Below are positions 304 to 57,650 of a stretch of 64,000 nucleotides of DNA, piece after piece. This DNA is from a virus (Duplodnaviria > Caudoviricetes). Within the stretch, counting starts at the first letter, position 1. Each line of letters starts with the position of its first letter. A program made the position numbers and the translations under genes. The notes beneath the pieces are model-generated. The model did not search any database, was not told the DNA's origin, and saw nothing but the letters and a program-made list of their open reading frames with translations. The DNA lies in IMG/VR virus record IMGVR_UViG_3300045837_000213, positions 1 through 64,000 of that record. One strand, given 5' to 3'.

Positions 304-1605
304 TCATTCGACCGGCTCCTCCTCGAGTAGATCGGAAGGGAAAGGCTCCGCGCCCTGGAGCACGCGGTAAAGACGCGCGCGGTCGATCTTCTTCCCCTCG
401 TACATGGTCATCAGTTGTTCCAACTGCTCGCCCGTCAGCTCCGACTTCTCGGCCTGCTCGGCGAGCGACTCGTCGCCGGCGTAGGCCTCGAGCACGTCGG
501 AGGCGCGGGCGCTCGTCTCCGGCGTCGCGTGGCTGTAATAGAGAACCATCGACTTGTCCGAGTGGCCGGTGACGGACTGGATGGTCGCCAGGTCGAGGCC
601 GGCCTGGAGCATGCGCGTCGTCGCCGTGTGGCGCGCGTCGTGGAAGGTTAACCCGTCGGCCACCTCACGTCCGTAAGGGATGCTGCAGTCCTCGCACGCC
701 CTCCTGAGGATCTCGTAGAACTTGGGCGACTCGTGGCCGGAGCGCGTGAAGACGAAGTCCGTCTCGCCCGACGCGATGAACTCGCGCAGGATGGCGGCCA
801 TCGTCTTCGTGACCCTGACGTAGCGGGTCGGGTTCGCGACGTACTGCGTCTTGGTGCCGAGCACCTTCAGCCTCATGCCGTCCCAATCTATGTGCTCCTT
901 CTTCAGCTTGTTCATCTCGCCGTGCCGCATCCCGGAAAGCAGGGCGAACTGGAGCTTGAGGCCGACCCTGCGGCGCGCCTCCGCCACGTTACGGCTCCTC
1001 TCGTCGAAGCGGCGCGGTGCGAGGAGGTACGCGTGCAGCGTCTTCTTCTCCTCGCCGGTGATCAGCCGCTCGCGCCTCCCCTTCGGGGCCTTGGGGCGCG
1101 GAATCTCGGGGTGGACCCACTGGTCGAGCTGCGGGTAAAGCCTCTTCACGCTGTTGAGGCAGGCGGCGACGCTGTTGAGTTCGCGGTCGACGCTCTGCGG
1201 CTTGAGGCCGTCGGCGAGCCGCTTCTTGACGAAGAGCTCGACGTGCGCGGTCTTCAACTCGGTCACCTTCAAAGACGGGTCGAGCACCGAGAGCAGGTCG
1301 CCGAGGATTCTGGTCGAGCGCGACTTCTCGCGCGGGTCGGTGATCGACTCCTTACGCCGCTCGACCAGGTCGGTGACGAGGGGGACGTCTGAGACCGAGA
1401 CGTAGCCGTAGGCGCGATCCTTCTCGTCCTTGCGGATCTTGCCGACGGCGGCGACGGCGTCCGACTCCGTCATGAAGCCGTGCTCGCGCTTGCGCCTGCC
1501 GTCGGCGAGGTAGATGTCATATCCCCACGACCAGTATTGATGTTTCTTGGCGTCGTACTTCCAGTGCTTCTTCTCCCGCTTCGAGTAGAACCGTTTGATC
1601 GCCAT
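304..1605 (-). CDS. int: Phage integrase (tyrosine recombinase)
   Basis: Catalytic motifs GMRHGE, FHDARH, TGH...YYSH; N-terminal arm-binding-like region; prophage-edge position. Confidence 0.95.
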   Translation of the reverse strand: MAIKRFYSKREKKHWKYDAKKHQYWSWGYDIYLADGRRKREHGFMTESDAVAAVGKIRKDEKDRAYGYVSVSDVPLVTDLVERRKESITDPREKSRSTRILGDLLSVLDPSLKVTELKTAHVELFVKKRLADGLKPQSVDRELNSVAACLNSVKRLYPQLDQWVHPEIPRPKAPKGRRERLITGEEKKTLHAYLLAPRRFDERSRNVAEARRRVGLKLQFALLSGMRHGEMNKLKKEHIDWDGMRLKVLGTKTQYVANPTRYVRVTKTMAAILREFIASGETDFVFTRSGHESPKFYEILRRACEDCSIPYGREVADGLTFHDARHTATTRMLQAGLDLATIQSVTGHSDKSMVLYYSHATPETSARASDVLEAYAGDESLAEQAEKSELTGEQLEQLMTMYEGKKIDRARLYRVLQGAEPFPSDLLEEEPVE

Positions 1606-1646
1606 GAAAGAGACTCCGGTTCAGTCCCCTGTCGGCAGGGGTTCCT

Positions 1647-2261
1647 TTACAGTTTGTCGGCGTCCGTCTTGCCGGAAGGCTTGTATTCGAGGTGAAGGGA
1701 AGACATCCCTACGGAGCTGTATCCCGTCAGCTTCAGCTCGATGACAGTCGAAGGGAACGACCACTGCCGCGAACGAGTCTTGACGCCCCTATCAGTAGAG
1801 TCGTTCCTGAAATTCGGCTGCCCGTACTTTTGCGTGAGCGCCTGGTCGAGGCCCTCGAAGTAGGCGTTGGCGAGCAGCGTTCTTATGTGCGAATCGACGG
1901 GCGAGAAATAGACGCTCCTCAGGCCGTTGGTCTTCACGTCCATGAAGAACTCGACCTCGAACCTGCCGCCCACGAGCTCGAAGTCCGGGATGTAGTAATC
2001 TGCGTAGGCGTACCGCTCGTCGCTTCCCTGCTTGAGGAGGTGGTTTTGCTCCGGTAGTTTTTCGAGGCGAAGGCCCGGCACTTCGGCGAGATCCTTCTCC
2101 GTCATGCCCCAGCGCGTGTTCTGCCAGCCGGGGAGGTCACGGGGCCCGGCCTCCTGCGCCGCCGCCGGTTGTAGAAGGAGCGCGGCGACGACGACAGCCG
2201 CGCCAGCCATGACGCGAAGGTGATGCGGCGCCGCCGCGGCGCGCGCCCTGAAGTCCCTCAT
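1647..2261 (-). CDS. Secreted/periplasmic hypothetical protein (lysogen-expressed position)
   Basis: Hydrophobic signal-like segment ending AAA-Q; TRWGMT motif; lies between integrase and regulator. Confidence 0.65.
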   Translation of the reverse strand: MRDFRARAAAAPHHLRVMAGAAVVVAALLLQPAAAQEAGPRDLPGWQNTRWGMTEKDLAEVPGLRLEKLPEQNHLLKQGSDERYAYADYYIPDFELVGGRFEVEFFMDVKTNGLRSVYFSPVDSHIRTLLANAYFEGLDQALTQKYGQPNFRNDSTDRGVKTRSRQWSFPSTVIELKLTGYSSVGMSSLHLEYKPSGKTDADKL

Positions 2262-2274
2262 AAAATTTCTCCGC

Positions 2275-4473
2275 TCAATCCTTCTTCCCCGCGACGACCT
2301 TGAAGCGCTTGCGCCGGCGCGAACTCCGGCGCGGGTGGACCGGGAGCCGAGCGCTCATCAGGTCGGGGTGTCGCGCGCGGATCTTCGCCGCCAGCGTCTC
2401 GATGTGCCGGAGTCCGAGGAGCGGCGCGGCGTGCGAGACGCGCCCGCCGGCGGCACGGAGCGCGTTCTCGATGTGATACCTCTCGAGGCGGAGCATCTCG
2501 GCCTGGAGGTCGCACGGGTGCCAGGCGGGCGAGGGCGATTGCGGCTTCACACGAACTTGCGCCGCGGCGCGCGCCACGTCCGCCGCGCGGACCTCGCGCC
2601 CGGGCCGAGCGAGCGCGAGGCGCTCGGCGAGCGCGCGCAGCTCCGGCACGTTGCCGAAGAGCGGCAGCCGCCTGACGGCCTCGACGGCCTCGGGCGTCAG
2701 CTCGGCCTCCGCGCCGAACTCGCGCGCGGCCTCCGCGACGAACAGGCGCAGGAGCGTCTCGACGTCCTCCGGGCGCTCGCGCAAAGGCGGCACTTCGAGC
2801 GAGACGCCGCTCAGGCGGTAATAGAGCGAGGCGCAGAAGTCGCCGTTGGCGACCGACTCCGACAGGTCGCGGTCGCTGGAGAGGATGACGCGGAAGGGCG
2901 GCGAGGAGACGCGCGTGAGGTCGACGAGGCCGAGCAGCCGCTTCTGCTCCTCGAGTCCGAGGAGCCCGGCCCCGTCGAGGTAGAGAGTCCCCGACGCGGC
3001 GTCGCGGGACTGGTGCCAATCCGTGGGGAGGTTTGAGCAGTCGAGCGCGACGAACGCGCCGGGGCGCCCGCCCCACTCGTGTATCAGCTCGGCGAGCGAG
3101 CGCCGCCCCGTGCCCGGCTCGCCGGTGATGAGGACGGGCGAGACGGAAGGCGCGACGAGGCGGGCGAGGCTCAGGAGTTCGAGGACGGCGGGCGACGCGT
3201 TGACGAGGACGGGTGTCGTCAGCCGGCGTGATCCCCCGTCGAGGCCGAAGAGGAGGCGCGCGGCGGCCCGGAGCCTCGAGAGAGTCGTGGCCGAAGGGCA
3301 GTCGCCGGCGCGCGCGTCCGCCTCCGTGTAGGCGACGAGCAGCTCGCGGCGCGGGACGTGCCCGTGCAACTCTTCGCAGACGGTCAGCGAGGCCGATGCG
3401 GCCCCTTCGTTGTCGCCGGCGAGTGACGAGATCACGCCCGCCCGCTTCAGCGTCTTCAGCGCCTCGTCATAACGACCGAGGCGTGCGAGGGCACGCCCGC
3501 GCGTGGTGAGCGCCTCGGCGAGTAGCGCGCGCTCGTCTCCGTCCTCGAGGGAGGTGGCGGCTTCACGAGCGACCCTCTCGGCCTCGCCGTAGCGGCCTTC
3601 ATCGATAAGAGCCCGCGCGCGCGTCTCGTCCACTTGCGCGATGCTGCCCTTGTCTTTGAGAGAAGAGAAAAGGGCGCGCGCGCGGTCCAGGTGTTTGTGC
3701 GCCTCCGATATCCTGCCGGCCATCGCGTGAAGGAATCCGATATTGTTCTCGACGCGCGCGCGGTAGCGCTCGTGGCCCGATATCTCGAAGAAGTACGAGG
3801 CCGCGGCGAATTCGATCAGGGCGCGGTCTGTGTATTCTGGCTTGCGTTCCGAAGCGCCGAGGTCCTTGAGCGCCGTCGCAAGTTGATTATGGTAGCGCCC
3901 CGAGAGGGACGGGTCGCCGACGCGGTCGAAGAGTTCTTTAGCCGAGGCGAGAATGTGAAGTGCCGCGTGGAGTCTCCCGGCGGAAATTTCGATGAGTCCG
4001 GACCGGAGGACGGCGAGCGCGCGCAGGTCGTCGCGCTCGCCGCACCCCGCTATGACCTCGGCGACGAGGATGCGGCCTTCGTCGAAAGCGCCCTCACGCC
4101 AGTAGCACGTCGCCAGCTCGAGCATGGATTCAAGTTCTTTGTCGCGCTCGCCCACCTCTCTGAAGAGGCGCGCCGCCTCGGAGAGAAGGTCTTTGGCGCG
4201 CCCCTGCGAGCCGGACAACTGACGCGCGCTCCCGATCCAGCCGGTGAGTGAGCCGGCGCGCATGAGTAGCTCCGCCTCCTCAAGAATGCTTAGTCCTTCG
4301 CGGCGCGGCTCGTGGCCCGCGCCGCGCCACAAGGGCGAGAGGAGGTCTCGCGCCCCCTCGTAATCGCCCACCTCCTCGAGTGTCTTGGCGCGGCGGCAGA
4401 GTTCGATCACGTCCGTGGCGCGGTCAGAAAAAACCTCTACCAGATGGGGGAAGCGCGCTCTTTTTGAATCCAT
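2275..4473 (-). CDS. TPR-repeat regulator with degenerate sigma54-activator-type AAA+ domain and C-terminal Fis-like HTH
   Basis: Helical TPR-like repeats; VLITGEPGTGRR, LYYRLS, PPLRERPED, GNVPEL and ALRAAGGRVSHAAPLLG motifs; no GAFTGA loop; Walker B reads LDG. Confidence 0.85.
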   Translation of the reverse strand: MDSKRARFPHLVEVFSDRATDVIELCRRAKTLEEVGDYEGARDLLSPLWRGAGHEPRREGLSILEEAELLMRAGSLTGWIGSARQLSGSQGRAKDLLSEAARLFREVGERDKELESMLELATCYWREGAFDEGRILVAEVIAGCGERDDLRALAVLRSGLIEISAGRLHAALHILASAKELFDRVGDPSLSGRYHNQLATALKDLGASERKPEYTDRALIEFAAASYFFEISGHERYRARVENNIGFLHAMAGRISEAHKHLDRARALFSSLKDKGSIAQVDETRARALIDEGRYGEAERVAREAATSLEDGDERALLAEALTTRGRALARLGRYDEALKTLKRAGVISSLAGDNEGAASASLTVCEELHGHVPRRELLVAYTEADARAGDCPSATTLSRLRAAARLLFGLDGGSRRLTTPVLVNASPAVLELLSLARLVAPSVSPVLITGEPGTGRRSLAELIHEWGGRPGAFVALDCSNLPTDWHQSRDAASGTLYLDGAGLLGLEEQKRLLGLVDLTRVSSPPFRVILSSDRDLSESVANGDFCASLYYRLSGVSLEVPPLRERPEDVETLLRLFVAEAAREFGAEAELTPEAVEAVRRLPLFGNVPELRALAERLALARPGREVRAADVARAAAQVRVKPQSPSPAWHPCDLQAEMLRLERYHIENALRAAGGRVSHAAPLLGLRHIETLAAKIRARHPDLMSARLPVHPRRSSRRRKRFKVVAGKKD

Positions 4474-8095: not shown

Positions 8096-8956
8096 GTGAA
8101 GATCACCAACACGGATAACCTCCCCGAACCGCTCGTCGCGGCTGTGAGCCGCGTGCGCGAGCCGTCGCCCGACCGCGTCTCCGTGACCGAGTTGATCGGC
8201 CCGCCGCAGATAAGGCAGCTCTCGCTCCGCCACTGGGACGAGATCGTCGAGGACGCGTCCGAGCGCATCTGGGCCACGATGGGCACGCTCATGCACCAGC
8301 TCCTCGAGTCGCACGCCGGCGTAGAGCGTCACTTGGCGGAGCGGACTCTGACGACGACCGTTGCGGGATTCACCGTGACGGGGACGTTCGACCTCTACCA
8401 CGAGGGCGGCGTGCTCTCCGACTACAAGTTCGTGTCGGTGTGGACGACGCTCGACGGCCTACGCGCCGACTGGGTCAGCCAGCTCAACCTCTACGCCTAC
8501 CTGCTACGCCTTTCGGGCTCGCGCGTGTCGCGCCTCCAGATCGTCGCCATCTACCGCGACTGGTCTAAGGGGAGGGCCCACGACCAGGGCTACCCACAAT
8601 CGCAGGTGCAAATCTTCGAGGTGCCGCTCTGGACGGACGACCGCGCGCTCGCCTTCCTCGAAGAGCGCCTGCGACTCCACGCCGCGGCGCAGGGAGGCGC
8701 GGCTGTCGAGTGCACGCCGGATGAGCGCTGGGAGCGCCCGACGAAGTACGCGCTCCGGAAGCGCGGGCAGAAGCGCGCCGTCAAGCTCTTCGACGACTAC
8801 GCCGAGGCGCGCGGCGCGGCCAGCTCGCCCAACCTCTACGTCGAGCGTCGCCCCGGCGCGTCGGTGCGCTGCGAGTCCTACTGCCGCGTCGCCGCCTTCT
8901 GCCCGCAGTACGCGAGGCTCAGGGCCGGGTCGGCGGAAGAAGGGGGTGGCGAGTGA
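8096..8956 (+). CDS. PD-(D/E)XK exonuclease (Cas4/RecB-like phage recombination nuclease)
   Basis: GTLMH, GTFD...LSDYK, QLNLY motifs; C-terminal Cys cluster CESYCRVAAFC. Confidence 0.85.
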   Translation: MKITNTDNLPEPLVAAVSRVREPSPDRVSVTELIGPPQIRQLSLRHWDEIVEDASERIWATMGTLMHQLLESHAGVERHLAERTLTTTVAGFTVTGTFDLYHEGGVLSDYKFVSVWTTLDGLRADWVSQLNLYAYLLRLSGSRVSRLQIVAIYRDWSKGRAHDQGYPQSQVQIFEVPLWTDDRALAFLEERLRLHAAAQGGAAVECTPDERWERPTKYALRKRGQKRAVKLFDDYAEARGAASSPNLYVERRPGASVRCESYCRVAAFCPQYARLRAGSAEEGGGE

Positions 8957-15990: not shown

Positions 15991-16338
15991 ATGGGAAGCC
16001 TGAGCTGTCTCAACGTATCGGGCGGCGACATTCGCATCCAGTTCGACACGGCGGACGCGTCGGAGGCGCTGAGAGCGCGCCGCATCATCAAGGACATGCT
16101 GCGCCGCGGCTACGCGCTCCTCGTCCGCATGAGCGACGGCACGTACCAGAGGGCGCTCGACTTCGACGAGACGGTCGGCGAGTACGTCATCGCCGACTTC
16201 GACCCGACGACGGGGCCGACGCCGGAAGAGGCGCGGCGCGAGGAGCGGGCGGAACGTTTCCGGCAGGCGGAGGTGAGCCTCAGTGAATCCTCCGCCACTT
16301 CAAAGAAGCGGCTTCCATTACTGAGATACGGAGGTTGA
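15991..16338 (+). CDS. Hypothetical protein; C-terminus runs into the lower-GC island
   Basis: GAGGAGG RBS; base composition shifts near 16283. Confidence 0.6.
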   Translation: MGSLSCLNVSGGDIRIQFDTADASEALRARRIIKDMLRRGYALLVRMSDGTYQRALDFDETVGEYVIADFDPTTGPTPEEARREERAERFRQAEVSLSESSATSKKRLPLLRYGG

Positions 16339-16472
16339 GCGTTGAAACCAAAGGCTAAAAAGAAAGAGCGAAAACGCTGTCTGGTTTGCCGCTGCGTGCT
16401 CACCAAGTCGAACGTGGCGGCGAATCTTAATCCCCATATTTGCAAGTCGTGTATGGGCTTCGAGGAGTAGTC

Positions 16473-16688
16473 ATGGCACACAAGAAAAAGAAGACTCTCG
16501 AAGATTATCAGAGCGAGGGTATAGAGCTTAGAGATTGTGAGGTTGACTCCTGCGTGTTGGAGCATCCCGACTCTCTCAAAGGTAATAGTGTGGACGCGCG
16601 AATCATTCTTAGTTTCAAGATGCCTGACGGGCGCTTGTTCACATTCAATCAGGTTCGTCGCATCAGGCTCGCGCCTGATGGCGAGTGA
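16473..16688 (+). CDS. Small hypothetical protein
   Basis: GAGGAG RBS, MAHKKKKT start. Confidence 0.55.
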   Translation: MAHKKKKTLEDYQSEGIELRDCEVDSCVLEHPDSLKGNSVDARIILSFKMPDGRLFTFNQVRRIRLAPDGE

Positions 16689-16810
16689 GTACCCGCGCTT
16701 GAAAGCGCGGGTGCTGATGCTGCGGTTTCCTCTGCGGTTTAAAAACCGCAGTCTCCACCGAGGTTTTGATGAATCCGCAGCCACCGCGATTGCGCTTTCA
16801 AGCAATCGCC
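16685..16810 (-). ncRNA. Candidate structured RNA resembling a TnpB omega/reRNA scaffold
   Basis: Three hairpins; on the - strand it contains GGTGGCTGCGG near the 5' end and ends ACCCGCGC-TTTCAA-GCGCGGGT-AC-TCAC. Confidence 0.4.
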
Positions 16811-16838
16811 TCAACGTGAAGTAGAGACAAGGTGAGAG

Positions 16839-17492
16839 ATGCAATTCAACTGCACAAGCGCGATATACGAAGCAGCACGGCAGCCGACTATTGAAGGCGA
16901 GGTTAAGGGCATCTGCCGAACGTGCGGCGCGGATAGCGTGGGCATCTTGTTTTCAAGTTGGGTTAAAGACTCATTCACAAATCACGACCTTTTACGCGAA
17001 GGCTCAATCGTCTGCCGCGCGTGCCTGTTTTGTTTTGAGGAAAAGAGCGAAATACTCAAAGCGAAAACAGGGCGTGATAAGCCTCAGAAGATGCGGACGT
17101 ATTCACACTTCGTTGTGGATGGCGAGTGGTTTCCACTAACGAAAGCAGATAAGCGCAAGATGCGTGAATTGCTTAAGGCCTCCCCAACCGTAGCCGTGAT
17201 AGCAGAGTCAGGACAAAAGCATCTTCTCTTTCGAGCGCGGGTGGGATGGTGGCAGTTTGAAGAAATCTCAATGCTGCCGGATTGGGCGCGCGTCGAAAGC
17301 ATGTTGCCTGCAATCGAAGAACTCTTGACAGGATTCAGCAAAGCCGAGATAGAGAGCGGCAATTACAACCTCTACAAAGTTGACAAGTTCGGCGTGAGGC
17401 GTTGGCATGAATTGGCGCAGCCGCTTTTGAAAGTCAACCTTTCGGCATATTTTCAACTAGCCATTTTCTTGGCTCAGAAGGAGAGCGAATGA
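16839..17492 (+). CDS. csf1: Type IV CRISPR-Cas large subunit Csf1 (Cas8-like)
   Basis: CRTCG...SFTNHD...CRAC zinc finger, SGQKHLLF motif; first gene of the csf operon. Confidence 0.8.
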   Translation: MQFNCTSAIYEAARQPTIEGEVKGICRTCGADSVGILFSSWVKDSFTNHDLLREGSIVCRACLFCFEEKSEILKAKTGRDKPQKMRTYSHFVVDGEWFPLTKADKRKMRELLKASPTVAVIAESGQKHLLFRARVGWWQFEEISMLPDWARVESMLPAIEELLTGFSKAEIESGNYNLYKVDKFGVRRWHELAQPLLKVNLSAYFQLAIFLAQKESE

Positions 17493-17839
17493 CAGACGAA
17501 GAAGTGGCGAGCAACCTGCTCACCCCGCTCTGGCGCGGCATCTCGGTAGACTACAAGGGAAAGTACGCGCGCAACATCTGGCAGCAATTCGAGGACAATA
17601 TAAGGTCTGCCGCTTACACGGCGCGAGCGTCAGAGTTTCTATCAAAGGTAGTTGCGCGACTCGGCATCACGATTGCGGCGGACGATGTCAAGCAGGTTTC
17701 AGAGTTAGTCGGAAGCGGGCAAGACCGCGCCCTGCTCAAAATGCTGCGCGACGATACGACTCTGCTCGTCTTGTTAGTGCGCGCGGACAACGAAGAACGG
17801 AAAGAGAAATTCAAGAAAGCTAAGGAGGCTTTCAAATAA
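17489..17839 (+). CDS. cas11: Type IV-B small subunit Cas11 (Csf4)
   Basis: Small helical protein (IWQQFEDNIRSAA) between csf1 and csf2. Confidence 0.72.
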   Translation: MTDEEVASNLLTPLWRGISVDYKGKYARNIWQQFEDNIRSAAYTARASEFLSKVVARLGITIAADDVKQVSELVGSGQDRALLKMLRDDTTLLVLLVRADNEERKEKFKKAKEAFK

Positions 17840-18816
17840 TGGAAACACTCGTCTATGAAGGAACGCTAACGGCTCTCACTTCGATTGCTCACAACGGCGG
17901 GCAGTCGTTCGGGATTGAATCAAAACTCAGGCGCGAGCGATTCGTGCAACCGGACGGCACAGTTGAAGAAGTGCCGATACTATCCGGCAACGGCTTACGC
18001 GGGATGCTGCGCGACAGAGGTATGTGGCACATGTGCCGCGCGCTCGGCTACGGCGTGGACGAAGAAGCTGGCAAGGTGCGCGGGCTATCGCTCTCGGCGT
18101 TCTACTTTCTCTTTTCAGGCGGCAGCTTGTACGCGGGCGCGTCTGATGGCATAGACGTTGATTACGCGCGGCGGCTGCGCGCAGAGATACCGCTCATCTC
18201 GATTTTCGGCGGCGCGGTAGGCAATCAAATCTTACCGGGCAAGCTGAAAGTTGGGAAAGCAATCCCGATTTGCTCGGAGACGATGCACCTGCTTCCTAAC
18301 TCGTATCAACGCGCGAATCCGACTTCGATTTGGGATTTCCTTCAAGCCGAGATGTACACGCGCAGGGATGACGAGCGCAACGAAAAACTCCGCACGGTGA
18401 TTGAAGGCCGCGCATTGAAGCAACTTGAAGATAAAGGCAATCTCTCGCTCCTGCCGGAAGAAGCACTTGAACAGGGGCAGGAGAAGGCAGAGCGCAAGCC
18501 GCAACAGATGATGTACTACACGGAGACCTTCGCGGCTGGCACGCAGTTCTATTGGAAGCTCACGCTCGAAGATGTCTCGGACGTGGAATACGACGCCTTC
18601 ATGACCTGCCTCGCGGAGTTCTCGAAGATGCCATACGTGGGCGGCAAGTCGGCTGTGGGTTTGGGAGAGGTCGCCGTGCGCTTCGACAAGTGGTTACAGA
18701 TTGACTCGCGCGTGCAAGTCGGAACATCCGAAATCAGCCGTCCGATAGGCACGGCGTACAGTGAGCATCTGAAATTGAAAGCAGATGACATCAGAAAGAT
18801 TTTGGAGACGGTGTGA
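17839..18816 (+). CDS. csf2: Type IV Cas7 backbone Csf2
   Basis: LTALTSIAH, PILSGNGLRGMLRD, LFSGG, PLISIFGG, C-terminal G-rich loop VGGKSAVGLG. Confidence 0.92.
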   Translation: METLVYEGTLTALTSIAHNGGQSFGIESKLRRERFVQPDGTVEEVPILSGNGLRGMLRDRGMWHMCRALGYGVDEEAGKVRGLSLSAFYFLFSGGSLYAGASDGIDVDYARRLRAEIPLISIFGGAVGNQILPGKLKVGKAIPICSETMHLLPNSYQRANPTSIWDFLQAEMYTRRDDERNEKLRTVIEGRALKQLEDKGNLSLLPEEALEQGQEKAERKPQQMMYYTETFAAGTQFYWKLTLEDVSDVEYDAFMTCLAEFSKMPYVGGKSAVGLGEVAVRFDKWLQIDSRVQVGTSEISRPIGTAYSEHLKLKADDIRKILETV

Positions 18817-19568
18817 AGGAAACGACGCTTAAAACTCTACGTCTGCATTATCAGGTGCGCGGGCGAAGGCGCGAGGAAGAGGCGCGGCAATTTCTCGCGG
18901 CGCACATCAAGCATCCGTGTGCTGTTGGCGTCTCCTGGGGCAAGGATTCCGTCGTGTGCGCGTTTCTCTGCGCTCCCCTGCTCACATCGCAAGATTGGTT
19001 GTTTCACGTCTCCGCGGGCGAATATGAGTTTCCTTCGACTAATGATGTGCGCGACCAATTCCTTGTGCGATTCCCCAACGACTGCCGGGAGTTCAAATCG
19101 GGTGATTACTTCGACACGATGCGCGCGTGTGGATTAACAGACATCACGACAACGCGGAGCGCGAAGGAAGATAAGGGGAAAAAGCACACAGCGTTCAGGC
19201 AAGCTGCTGTCGGAGCGGAGTCTCGCGTGTGGGGATTACGCGCAGAGGAAAGCTTGGGGCGTCGTAAGTATGCCAGGTCGCGCGGGCAAGCGGCATTTCA
19301 CAAGGGAGAGAATCTGCTTGTATTAAGCCCGATTATTTGGTGGTCATGGCTTGATGTGTGGTCTGTCATTATCGCCAACGAACTACCATACGTTGAAGTT
19401 TACGACAAGCACGATGAGCAGGGCGAAGGCTTGGCGCACGCGCGGTCTGGTACGTGGGCGGGTACGCTCGGCTCTGGCTTAGGGCGCATAGCTTTTCTCA
19501 AACGGTTCTACCCAGACTTGTACCAACGCTTAATAACTGAGTTCCCGATAGCGAGTAGCCAAACATGA
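18813..19568 (+). CDS. cysH: CysH-like PAPS-reductase-family protein (type IV-B accessory)
   Basis: SWGKDS PP-loop, GLRAEES, PIIWWSWLDVW motifs. Confidence 0.88.
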   Translation: MKETTLKTLRLHYQVRGRRREEEARQFLAAHIKHPCAVGVSWGKDSVVCAFLCAPLLTSQDWLFHVSAGEYEFPSTNDVRDQFLVRFPNDCREFKSGDYFDTMRACGLTDITTTRSAKEDKGKKHTAFRQAAVGAESRVWGLRAEESLGRRKYARSRGQAAFHKGENLLVLSPIIWWSWLDVWSVIIANELPYVEVYDKHDEQGEGLAHARSGTWAGTLGSGLGRIAFLKRFYPDLYQRLITEFPIASSQT

Positions 19569-20245
19569 GACACGAACCTTTGCGAATCACGGCGCGACTC
19601 CAAACGCCAGTCATCTGTGACGACAGGCTACCGCTTGACGGGGCGCTGTTTTACTTCGCCATGCGCGAGCGTTACGGCTTTGAAGTCTCAACCATCCCAT
19701 GTAACGCAATCATCGGAGACGATTCAGACAAGAGGCGACTCGTGCCCTTCAAGGTCTATTACCGGAACGTCGCGGGGCAAAACTATTGGTTCTATCAATG
19801 CAGTTTCGCTTGTTGGGTCGGCACGGTCGCAGAAGGGCGCGACTATTGGGCAAAACGTTTTGACGTGAAGCAATCGGACATCGTTGATTTTCAGGGGCGG
19901 CGCGGAAAAGTGGTTACGAAGTCAGGAAAATATAAAGGCTATCGGATGCCCGTATTCACACGGCACGCGCTCGCCGTGAGGTGGTACGCGGTCGGAGATA
20001 AGAGCGAAACCGAACGGCTCTTAAACTTTTGCACGCATCTTGGAAAGAAAGAATCGCAAGGCTACGGAGCGGTCTTAGATTGGCAAGTTGAAAGATGGCA
20101 CTCAGATTGGAGTGTAGAAAGCCCGCGCGGTTTAATGCGCGCCGTGCCAAGCGAACAGGGGTTGCTGGCAGGCTTTCGCCCTTCGTACTGGTCGCCAGAG
20201 AATCAAGCCGTGTGCGCTCTGCCAGTGTCTTTTGCAGATGTCTAA
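19565..20245 (+). CDS. csf3: Type IV Cas5 Csf3
   Basis: PLRITARL, LDGAL, LGKKESQGYGAV G-loop, RPSYW. Confidence 0.88.
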   Translation: MRHEPLRITARLQTPVICDDRLPLDGALFYFAMRERYGFEVSTIPCNAIIGDDSDKRRLVPFKVYYRNVAGQNYWFYQCSFACWVGTVAEGRDYWAKRFDVKQSDIVDFQGRRGKVVTKSGKYKGYRMPVFTRHALAVRWYAVGDKSETERLLNFCTHLGKKESQGYGAVLDWQVERWHSDWSVESPRGLMRAVPSEQGLLAGFRPSYWSPENQAVCALPVSFADV

Positions 20246-20331
20246 GAGGAACAAGGCAAGTGGAGAAAACAGTAAAAGAATCCCCGCCGCTTTCAAGGCG
20301 GGGAGCGTTCAATCGAACGCGGGGGGCGCGG

Positions 20332-20694
20332 ATGCCGGTCGCTGAATACGAAGGTAAGGAAGCCTGGCACCAGGCCGTGATGTGGCACGGCGTCTCGATG
20401 CTGCCGCGCCTCAGGCGGCTGAGCGACGAAGAACGCCTCATCGTCATGCGAGCCGCCGGCGAGCACAACTGCTCAGAGCCGCTCTGGCTCTTCGCCGGGA
20501 AGCGCCGCTTTTCGATCCCGCTCTGGAGCGACAAGCCACTCTCCGGGGCGGAGGTCGCGGCGCTGATGGTCTTCGGCCTGTGGGTTCAGTGCGGCGAGGA
20601 CGAGGGGATGGCCGGCCAGCTCGTGGGGGATTGGCCGGAGATCAGGACGGCGGTTTTCCTGGTCGGGCTGGAGGAGAAAGAGGCCCTTCGATGA
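20332..20694 (+). CDS. Hypothetical protein
   Basis: GC-rich ORF resuming after the island. Confidence 0.5.
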   Translation: MPVAEYEGKEAWHQAVMWHGVSMLPRLRRLSDEERLIVMRAAGEHNCSEPLWLFAGKRRFSIPLWSDKPLSGAEVAALMVFGLWVQCGEDEGMAGQLVGDWPEIRTAVFLVGLEEKEALR

Positions 20695-20856
20695 GGGCGT
20701 GCATTTTTCGCACGCCGCACGGCCCGGCGCGCGGGGGGCGCGGGGCCGATTCCGCGCCGCGTTTACGCGGGCTTCTTTGATTTTCCGGCGGCGGCAGGAT
20801 CGGTCACGAGAATACGTTTTTCCGGGAATGATTTACGTGTTTAACGGAGGCGTCTG

Positions 20857-21051
20857 ATGGCAACCGAGATTCGCTGCTTCGAATGCGGGGAGACGGGGCA
20901 CGGGGCCGCCGACTGCCCCCGGCTGAAAGAGGAGCGTGAAGCCGAGTGGCGGGCGCTCCTCAAGCCGGTCGTCATGAAAATGCACACCCGCGGCTATCAG
21001 AGGCTGACCGTCGAGAAGGACGGCGGCACCGTCGAGCTGTTCGTCGAGTGA
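20857..21051 (+). CDS. Small CCHC zinc-knuckle protein
   Basis: CFECGETGHGAADC; GGAGG RBS. Confidence 0.7.
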   Translation: MATEIRCFECGETGHGAADCPRLKEEREAEWRALLKPVVMKMHTRGYQRLTVEKDGGTVELFVE

Positions 21052-22886: not shown

Positions 22887-23144
22887 GTGAGCGAAGCCAA
22901 ACACATCGTCTTCATCGAGGACATGCCGAAAGCCCGCACCCGCACCTGGGAGGTCAGGGCCAAAGACGGAAACGTCCTTCTCGGCATGATCGGCTGGTTC
23001 GGTCGCCGGCGCGGCTACGCCTTCTTCCCTCTGCCAGAAAGGGTGTTCGAGCGGACGTGCCTGAGAGACATCGCCGACTTCATCGAGCGGCAGAACGTCG
23101 CGCACCGCGAGGCACTGAAAAGGGGCAGGGCGCTGACGACATGA
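22887..23144 (+). CDS. Hypothetical phage protein
   Basis: KTRTW-like and LGMIGWFG..R.YAFFP motifs; coupled on both sides. Confidence 0.55.
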   Translation: MSEAKHIVFIEDMPKARTRTWEVRAKDGNVLLGMIGWFGRRRGYAFFPLPERVFERTCLRDIADFIERQNVAHREALKRGRALTT

Positions 23145-24178
23145 CCGAGCGCGTCCAGGCACACCATCTCCAGCTCATCAAGCCGGCCCCCGGCCCGCTC
23201 GACCGGGGCCTCGTCGAGATCTCGCCCGCCGCGCTCTACGTCGTCTCGCTCGCGCCTTCGGCCCGGCGCGGCGCGCACACCTGCCTTCGCCGCGCCGCCC
23301 GCCTCATGGGCGCGCGCTCGACCGATGAGGTCCGCTGGGAGCAGATGCGCTTCGCCCACGTCGAGATGCTCAAGGAGCGGATGCGCGCGAAAGGTCTCTC
23401 GCCCCTCACCGTCAACGTCACGCTCTCGACCCTGCGCGGCGTGGCGCGCGAGGCCTGGCGCTTAAAGCTCATGCCGACGGAAGACTACCTGCGCCTGAAG
23501 GACGTGCGCGGCGTGCGCGGCGAGAGGTCGAGAGCGGGCCGCCGGCTCTCGGGCGACGAGCTGGAGGCGCTCATCTCGTCGTGCGAGCGCGACGCGAGGA
23601 AGATCGGCGCGCGGGACCTCTGCCTGGTGGCACTCCTCGCCGGCGCGGGACTGCGCCGCGCGGAGGCGGTCGCGCTCGACGTCGAGGACTACGACACACG
23701 CCGCCACGCCCTCCTCGTGAGGGGCAAGGGCAACAAAGAACGCACCGTCTACTTCGAGGACGGCGGTGCGCGCCGCGCGATCACGCGCTGGCTCCGGGTG
23801 CGCGGGGGCGGTGGGGGGCCGCTCCTGTGCCCCGTCGATAAGACCGGGGTAGTCCACTTCAGGCGGCTGGGCGAATCGGCCGTCTATAAGGTGCTCGTCC
23901 GGCGCGCGCGCGGGGCCGGCTTGCGCCGCTTCAGCCCGCACGACCTCCGGCGCACGTTCGCCTCCGACCTCCTCGACCTCGACGCCGACATCTCGGACGT
24001 GCAGAAGCTCCTCGGCCACGCGCGAGTGGAGACCACAGTCATCTACGACCTGCGGGGCGAGGACTCGAAGCGCGCGGCGCTACGCTTGCGGGCGCTGCCG
24101 TTCCGCGTGCGGCGCAAGCGCTACCCGAAGAAAGGGAAACGTCGCCGGCGGAAGTTCCGCCGCGGCGAATACAGGTGA
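23141..24178 (+). CDS. Second tyrosine recombinase (XerC/D-like)
   Basis: GLRRAE, GKGNKER, SPHDLRRTF, LLGH...TTVIYD. Confidence 0.92.
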   Translation: MTERVQAHHLQLIKPAPGPLDRGLVEISPAALYVVSLAPSARRGAHTCLRRAARLMGARSTDEVRWEQMRFAHVEMLKERMRAKGLSPLTVNVTLSTLRGVAREAWRLKLMPTEDYLRLKDVRGVRGERSRAGRRLSGDELEALISSCERDARKIGARDLCLVALLAGAGLRRAEAVALDVEDYDTRRHALLVRGKGNKERTVYFEDGGARRAITRWLRVRGGGGGPLLCPVDKTGVVHFRRLGESAVYKVLVRRARGAGLRRFSPHDLRRTFASDLLDLDADISDVQKLLGHARVETTVIYDLRGEDSKRAALRLRALPFRVRRKRYPKKGKRRRRKFRRGEYR

Positions 24179-57329: not shown

Positions 57330-57650
57330 TTACTTAGCCGCGGGCGTTTCGGCCTCGGCCTTCGCCTCGGATTCCTTCCTGGCCTTCGCCTCGGCGTCTG
57401 CCTTAGCTTTGGCTTCCGCCTTCGCCTTGGCCTGCGCCTCGCGCTTCGCTTTGGCCTCCGCCTCAGCCGCGGCCTTGGCAGCCTCTTCAGCCTCCGCCTT
57501 AGCTTTCGCTTCAGCCTCGGCGCGCTCGCGCTCGGCGTCCTCGAAGAGCTTGTGCGTCGAGGCGTCGAAGTCGCTCTCGTTGATCGTGGCGAAGCCGCTC
57601 GGCGCGCCTTCGTGCGCGATCCTTACTGTCGGAACCTTCATGGTCGTCAC
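57330..57650 (-). CDS. Small Ala/Lys/Glu-rich capsid-adjacent protein
   Basis: PTVRI...INESDFD..TH N-terminus plus AKAEA repeats. Confidence 0.65.
   Translation of the reverse strand: MTTMKVPTVRIAHEGAPSGFATINESDFDASTHKLFEDAERERAEAEAKAKAEAEEAAKAAAEAEAKAKREAQAKAKAEAKAKADAEAKARKESEAKAEAETPAAK

Follow-up and report, generated by a model that had tools for sequence, protein, structure and literature searches.

An intact, array-less type IV-B CRISPR-Cas cassette whose operon includes cysH, carried by a prophage of a probable Pyrinomonadaceae-like host

Type IV-B is, to our knowledge, the one widespread CRISPR-Cas subtype for which no function is known. The IV-B locus of a Mycobacterium sp. JS623 megaplasmid (PDB 7JHY; PMC7937560) encodes Csf1, Cas11, Csf2, Csf3 and a cysH-like gene and has no array, Cas6 or helicase; the solved complex holds heterogeneous RNA of 55-60 nt that is loaded without sequence preference, and processed CRISPR RNAs (crRNAs) that were co-expressed with it were not enriched (PMC7937560). 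Virus-borne IV-B is already in print as well (PMC10848311, PMC7038947): array-less or nearly array-less cassettes with a CysH-like gene are found in Fuxiviridae of Bathyarchaeia (PMC10848311), in prophages and lytic phages (PMC7038947) and in Skermania phage SPI1. Here we describe the cassette at positions 16839-20245 of IMG/VR virus record IMGVR_UViG_3300045837_000213, a single record of 93,431 bp whose first 64 kb constitute the analysed window. The cassette is genuine and intact: a prophage-borne type IV-B module that lacks an array and includes cysH in its operon. It adds another example, real but ordinary, to the plasmid and phage IV-B cassettes already known.

Five open reading frames (ORFs) lie on the + strand in the order csf1, cas11, csf2, a CysH-like PP-loop gene and csf3:

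16839-17492, + strand: csf1, small type IV large subunit, 217 aa (PADLOC Csf1_0_IV, 5.2e-19)
17489-17839, + strand: cas11, type IV small subunit, 116 aa (PADLOC Cas11_1_IV, 2.4e-29), its start overlapping the csf1 stop by 4 nt
17839-18816, + strand: csf2, type IV Cas7 backbone subunit, 325 aa (PADLOC Csf2_0_IV, 1.6e-82; PDB 7jhy Csf2, 4e-20)
18813-19568, + strand: cysH-like gene (CasCysH), 251 aa (Pfam PAPS_reduct, 1.1e-13)
19565-20245, + strand: csf3, type IV Cas5 subunit, 226 aa (PADLOC Csf3_0_IV, 7.9e-44; TIGR03116, 8e-16)

Successive ORFs overlap by 4, 1, 4 and 4 bases, and the five genes are thus translationally coupled. This is the arrangement that a first-pass annotation of the DNA had described, with cysH between csf2 and csf3, and it is borne out by the ORF coordinates together with the PADLOC and Pfam matches. 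The same annotation had named confirmation by profile models as a check on its assignment, and this was obtained with PADLOC type IV models at E-values from 5e-19 to 2e-82, the best solved match being to type IV-B.

The components that characterize type IV-B are all present, namely Csf1, Csf2 and Csf3 together (PADLOC type IV models), a Cas11-like small subunit in the operon, which marks IV-B and IV-C as opposed to IV-A, and a cysH-like gene whose product has the PP-loop but lacks the catalytic cysteine. Compared with solved structures, Csf2 ranked highest against the type IV-B Csf2 of 7JHY (mainly over residues 4-155), followed by the IV-C Cas7c of 11fs (3e-17) and, at about 1e-4, by the IV-A structures 8rc2, 7xfz and 9n3y. 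Relatives of Csf2 are annotated by JGI as 'CRISPR type IV-associated protein Csf2', and Csf3 orthologues in related cassettes match Pfam PF27782 (Csf3). Csf1 bears an N-terminal cysteine cluster (CxxC ... CxxCxxC), and in an alignment with 27 relatives (alignment A4) C26 is nearly invariant while Y88, H90, W97, S124, G125 and Q126 are invariant. The 217-aa large subunit gave no HD match in PADLOC or Pfam and is thus no Cas10-HD. Homology in Csf2 and Csf3 is common to this cassette and to types IV-A and IV-C; IV-A, which lacks Cas11, has DinG, Cas6/Csf5 and an array, whereas IV-C has a Cas10-like HD subunit in the place of Csf1, and none of these additional components occurs here.

The absence of a repeat array, cas6 and dinG, also reported in the first-pass annotation, held for the whole record. 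A scan of all 93,431 bases for direct repeats of at least 20 bases at a spacing of 40-120 bases returned a coding repeat at 57400 as its sole match, and Tandem Repeats Finder likewise found no CRISPR-like array; a cognate array in another part of the prophage, which would have spoken against the assignment, was therefore not found in the sequenced DNA, to which this negative applies (the record being 82% complete by CheckV). Six-frame searches of the record gave no match at E <= 1 to Cas6 (PF01881), a DinG-type helicase (PF13307) or Cas1 (PF01867), and the only helicase-like gene lies 8 kb downstream of the cassette and encodes a HerA-type ATPase. The window yielded neither a tRNA nor an Rfam family at gathering score, and a search of 16000-20700 in the E-value mode of Rfam was empty as well.

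The JS623 cassette is plasmid-borne in an actinobacterium, whereas the present one is in a prophage of a probable acidobacterium with cysH between csf2 and csf3, and sequence identity between the two is low. Unlike the present record, the Fuxivirus system includes a mini-array, and the host lineage also differs.

The cassette was horizontally acquired. It lies on an island of low guanine-cytosine (GC) content that also holds two small ORFs:

16270-20310 (edges approximate), no strand: low-GC island holding the cassette, 54-55% GC against 65-69% around it (composition profile)
16342-16473, + strand: 43-aa ORF, a CxxC..CxxC zinc ribbon
16473-16688, + strand: 71-aa ORF

DNA similarity to relatives spans 16863-20252 and no more, beginning just inside csf1 and ending 7 bases past csf3. 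As similarity stops at the gene borders, the moving unit is the gene set itself. Megablast of 16000-21000 matched nothing in collections of phages and plasmids. Relatives of Csf2 numbered 774 at E <= 1e-10, many of them on contigs of 50-70 kb, and 48 IMG/VR loci carry one; the closest (Csf2 85-93% identical) reside in different phage backbones of 50-63% GC. By these sequence comparisons the cassette belongs to a large, mostly phage-borne clade; SPI1 (KR011061.1; 36% identity) is the only cultured phage in INPHARED with a Csf2 relative. Neither the 43-aa nor the 71-aa ORF matched a Pfam or PHROG family or had a homologue beside related cassettes, and their membership in the IV-B system is doubtful.

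All five genes are under purifying selection. The ratio of nonsynonymous to synonymous substitution rates (dN/dS), estimated against three relatives, ranged from 0.03 to 0.21 (about 0.1 for csf1, 0.05-0.07 for csf2 and 0.06-0.075 for the cysH-like gene), values that are rough as dS is near saturation. An empty-site sister phage was sought in locus L004, the only IMG/VR relative reached via the 825-aa gene upstream of the cassette; there 12 kb are replaced and the junction is not clean, and the candidate was rejected. The 825-aa gene had no relative in genome contigs, and exact-protein look-ups returned the same lineage or nothing.

Some relatives carry accessory features that this copy lacks. 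One is a zinc-finger protein of 270-297 aa, encoded in either the csf1-cas11 or the csf2-cysH interval, which has no known family (in one copy, a weak HNH-like PHROG match):

L005, 7760-8653: zinc-finger protein copy in a related cassette
L178, 4804-5655: zinc-finger protein copy in a related cassette
L001, 8972-9784: zinc-finger protein copy in a related cassette

In the L176 cassette a 73-aa helix-turn-helix (HTH) gene takes its place; both genes are absent here. In about ten relatives (L009, L022, L030, L041, L048 and others), Csf1 extends into a C-terminal tail with a Q-L-x-L-F-like end that overlaps cas11, and the Csf1 of this prophage ends before that tail (alignment A4). As a side observation, L176, whose Csf2 is 91% identical, encodes at 1176-3424 a Prok-E2_D plus ThiF-family gene pair (a ubiquitin-like conjugation pair) about 1.4 kb upstream of csf1.

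The CysH-like protein has the PP-loop but neither the redox nor the Fe-S cysteines of related enzymes. Its PP-loop reads S41-W-G43-K44-D45-S46; across 41 sequences this motif (S-x-G-K-D-S) and a GLRxEES motif are conserved and no cysteine is. The C-terminal catalytic cysteine is absent, with no cysteine past residue 106. An AlphaFold2 model (predicted local distance difference test score 88.9) had TtuA, NcsA, adenosine 5'-phosphosulfate and 3'-phosphoadenosine 5'-phosphosulfate (APS/PAPS) reductases, CysD and FAD synthase as its Foldseek neighbours. With the TtuA/NcsA tRNA thiolases and the APS/PAPS reductases (CysH) it shares a fold (Foldseek probability 1.0, template-modelling score 0.5-0.58) as well as the SxGKDS and GLRxEES motifs; however, PAPS reductase has a C-terminal catalytic cysteine and TtuA/NcsA a cysteine triad for an iron-sulfur (Fe-S) cluster, whereas the protein examined here has neither and is only 13-18% identical to them. 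Sulfur chemistry is therefore improbable. In a published model, CasCysH is an ATP alpha-hydrolase that adenylates its substrate without sulfur chemistry (PMC8175902), and the motifs and the predicted fold of this protein are consistent with that view.

Position and sequence of cysH vary more than those of the csf genes. The gene is present in 44 of the 48 IMG/VR loci, always adjoining csf3 or csf2: about 19 (~40%) show the order csf1-cas11-csf2-cysH-csf3 and about 25 the order csf1-cas11-csf2-csf3-(gap)-cysH, and its place between csf2 and csf3 is thus a common layout and not an unusual one. It is also the most divergent component (25-40% identical where Csf2 is 50-58% identical). In L178/L179, csf2 and csf3 are 75-78% identical at the nucleotide level to this cassette and the cysH span does not align; the CysH encoded there is 30% identical to that of the prophage and 46% to that of L001. 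As cysH is unalignable between collinear cassettes and closer to the L001 type, it has been exchanged as a module, with two CysH types (27-30% identical) replaced at the gene borders:

L178/L179, 6978-7676: exchanged cysH copy
L001, 9762-10520: exchanged cysH copy

The non-coding DNA just before the cassette is strongly structured. The 161 nt before csf1 (16680-16840) contain three hairpins and fold far better than shuffled sequences (z -5.65). Two hairpins, one on each side of the cassette, were listed:

16786-16809, + strand: hairpin with the 8-nt loop GCTTTCAA, 29 nt before the csf1 ATG
20276-20311, + strand: hairpin with stem 20281-20304, 36 nt past the csf3 stop

The loop GCTTTCAA is common to the hairpins before csf1 and after csf3, their stems differ, and a third palindrome carries the same 9-mer. 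Likewise, the motif GCTTTCAAG is found at three hairpins bracketing the cassette (two upstream and one after csf3), against 0.3 matches expected by chance. These hairpins are absent from about 55 related loci and have no Rfam match, and do not constitute a conserved partner of the IV-B system. The earlier suggestion that 16685-16810 might specify a partner RNA of the complex is accordingly weakened, since the segment, strongly structured as it is, occurs in none of the relatives. A possible source of the right-hand hairpin lies beyond the window, where a Y1 transposase of IS200/IS605 type (PF01797, 3e-42) is encoded at record positions 89600-89962 within an element with flanking hairpins (89400-90080). 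The hairpin at 20276-20311 aligns with the IS200-type 3' hairpin at 90032-90072 (33 of 35 positions identical, two indels, z 15.6 against shuffles); the left-side hairpins have only the loop motif in common with it and show no significant alignment to either end of the insertion sequence (IS). The hairpin after csf3 concerns local mobility and not the function of the cassette.

The record is an integrated prophage. A tyrosine integrase is encoded at 304-1605 at its left end, and a 124-bp direct repeat beside the integrase at 1-124 recurs at 93202-93325; these repeats are probably the attachment sites. Two contigs of Pyrinomonadaceae metagenome-assembled genomes (MAGs) match the right flank at 90-94% identity, and the prophage encodes tail genes as well as a P22-type capsid that is most closely related to those of Pyrinomonadaceae/Blastocatellia MAGs. 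Integrase, direct repeats, flank identity and phage genes together therefore indicate integration in a probable acidobacterial host, probably a Pyrinomonadaceae-like soil acidobacterium. ARAGORN found no tRNA in the right attachment flank, and the DNA past the right repeat contains only a weak 17-nt match to the 3' end of a transfer-messenger RNA. Among 151 genomes sampled from the likely host family, Cas1 is encoded in 61 (58 of 148 without the unpublished genomes G015, G034 and G130) and Csf2 was not found in any.

Within the prophage, the cassette sits in a + strand early block together with genes for an exonuclease, a primosomal protein, a ParB-like protein and a second integrase. A second tyrosine recombinase gene of the early region lies at 23057-24178, 3 kb downstream of the cassette. 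An exonuclease (8096-8956; phrog_2139) has a weaker match to a PHROG labelled 'CRISPR/Cas system associated', and may be a Cas4-like nuclease outside the cassette. Elsewhere in the window, about 14 tandem copies of the 7-base unit ATGAGTG occupy 53154-53250, directly after a 1332-aa ORF (49132-53130, - strand).

A second system is encoded 25 kb away as a Vipr gene with GGY-NN (VIPR) arrays, the arrays lying at 45.6-46.9 kb. The first-pass annotation had counted two distinct Cas7-family systems on this one phage, and the second, a RAMP system, is indeed real. VIPR (Vipr RAMP plus GGY-NN vrRNAs) is carried by phages, forms RAMP-RNA filaments and serves in conflicts among mobile elements (bioRxiv 10.64898/2026.04.26.720920), much as is discussed for IV-B; however, it is a separate system that differs in protein family and RNA periodicity, and the preprints on it make no mention of type IV, Csf or CysH. 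Scanning of all 49 IV-B-bearing IMG/VR records for eight consecutive GGY-NN units revealed clear arrays in four (the present record, L009, L019 and L037), one weak single match and none in the other 44, so that IV-B does not depend on VIPR. Upstream of csf1, on its strand and 0.7-5.3 kb away, three further phages encode a vipr homologue with arrays:

L009, 2893-4329: complete VIPR locus upstream of csf1
L019, 1723-3316: complete VIPR locus upstream of csf1
L181 (G175), 2151-3601: complete VIPR locus upstream of csf1

DNA similarity among these three phages exists only within the csf genes and not in the flanks. Co-occurrence statistics had been proposed in the first-pass annotation. Among records of at least 20 kb, arrays occurred in 4-5 of 38 with IV-B and in none of 39 controls matched by a related capsid; yet the Fisher P value varied from 0.025 to 0.11 with the inclusion of the weak match and the index case, and in the reverse direction none of 212 VIPR-array loci contained csf genes. 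The link between IV-B and VIPR is thus only suggestive. A CysH-like match beside the VIPR arrays of L124 was considered as a CasCysH and rejected, as it is a PAPS_reduct+DUF3440 protein with a ParB-like neighbour. Because VIPR lies upstream of csf1 in three phages with unrelated flanks, because both systems occur here and because of the 4-5 of 38 against 0 of 39, it is conceivable, though in our judgement quite improbable, that in some soil phages IV-B and VIPR form one inter-phage warfare unit, in which, for example, Csf/CasCysH might act on, protect or neutralize vrRNAs or their targets.

With moderate confidence, we read the locus as an intact and selected IV-B effector cassette that is acquired cargo of a temperate Pyrinomonadaceae-like phage and whose products form an RNA-scaffolded complex used together with CysH in conflict. 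The cassette is carried as horizontally acquired cargo in the early/replication gene block. By homology with the JS623 complex, Csf2 and Cas11 would assemble into intertwined filaments along ~55-60-nt RNA from a source other than a CRISPR array, and Csf1 and Csf3 would cap the filament. The CysH-like PP-loop ATP alpha-hydrolase, without redox or Fe-S cysteines, would adenylate nucleic acid that the complex holds or encounters, and adenylation would either modify that nucleic acid or prime its modification (the model of Taylor et al. 2021). The phage would then deploy the complex against host defences or rival mobile elements, and not for adaptive immunity. In this scheme, we infer the assembly of the ribonucleoprotein, the partnership with CysH, the chemistry of CysH and the biological role.

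Several points weigh against it. We know of no experiment on any type IV-B function, and the physical tie of CysH to the complex is presumed. In otherwise collinear cassettes, CysH is 27-30% identical where Csf2 is 74-85% identical, and such exchange of cysH speaks against CysH and the complex having co-evolved a tight protein interface; furthermore, four related loci have no cysH within reach. The NCBIfam type IV equivalogs scored below their cut-offs (TIGR03114, 15 bits against 140; TIGR03115, 74 against 130; TIGR03116, 58 against 140); these models were built on type IV-A (AFERR) sequences, a bias to which we attribute the low scores, and were not treated as defining for IV-B. Finally, Csf1 and Csf3 are not resolved in the solved complex (PMC7937560).

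Two other accounts assign the complex a role with guide RNAs. The Csf complex might soak up host crRNAs or the vrRNAs of rivals and thereby disarm RNA-guided defence or interference. Consistent with this, Cas1 is frequent enough in the likely host family that host crRNAs would be available, and VIPR loci adjoin csf1 in three other phages and occur on this same prophage. Class 1 Cas7 backbones, however, bind RNA in 6-nt steps and the vrRNA repeat is 5 nt, a mismatch that would disfavour vrRNAs as ligands; most IV-B records have no GGY-NN array, the VIPR-array loci have no csf genes, and the conserved, selected CysH enzyme would be left without a role. The idea itself has been published earlier (PMC7038947; PMC8175902), and the literature divides on it: RNA loading without sequence preference (PMC7937560) and a negative correlation of IV-B with other CRISPR types (PMC7038947) speak for it, whereas processed crRNAs failed to be enriched in the solved complex (PMC7937560) and a complex anti-CRISPR mechanism was judged unlikely by the authors of PMC7038947. 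On balance we hold it unlikely. Alternatively, the complex might borrow host crRNAs or another defined RNA for guided binding or silencing of competitors, much as IV-A does, with CysH as the effector. The full Cascade-like set of subunits and the frequent CRISPR adaptation genes in the likely host family would suit such a role, as would the finding that silencing by type IV-A needs no nuclease (PMC12669027) and the mini-array that accompanies one archaeal virus IV-B (PMC10848311). Yet the record contains neither Cas6 nor a repeat, no conserved non-coding segment accompanies the cassette, and the solved system failed to load crRNAs (PMC7937560), so that this borrowing must be considered distinctly unlikely. 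Neither account explains CysH.

The remaining explanations deny the phage a benefit from the cassette. Its hairpins could be transposon ends and the island cargo mobilized by TnpA of an IS200/IS605 element, so that its presence would reflect transposition. The right-end hairpin, nearly a copy of the 3' hairpin of the Y1-transposase element on the same prophage, and the recurrence of GCTTTCAAG well above chance at the bracketing hairpins agree with such a passenger; the left hairpins, in contrast, align significantly to neither IS end, neither TnpA nor hairpins of this kind are found near the ~55 related cassettes, and all five genes are under purifying selection. As this explanation moreover accounts for mobility and not for function, we give it little credence. 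Still harder to sustain is a decaying CRISPR-Cas remnant without present function. The lack of an array, a nuclease and adaptation genes would be expected of a remnant, but the ORFs are all intact and coupled, the same gene set is retained across hundreds of divergent relatives, and the dN/dS values directly contradict decay, which makes this by far the least credible of the explanations.

The copy described here is minimal: it comprises the five genes alone, lacks accessory genes and the Csf1 tail, and shares its prophage with a VIPR system and an IS200-type element. It offers some modest leads, namely that cysH is an exchangeable module, that the cassette moves as a gene-bordered unit across phages of very different GC, and that VIPR lies upstream of csf1 in a minority of cases; these leave the picture of IV-B unchanged. 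As an intact and selected example of IV-B in a defined context, the cassette may nevertheless serve as a test system for the subtype.

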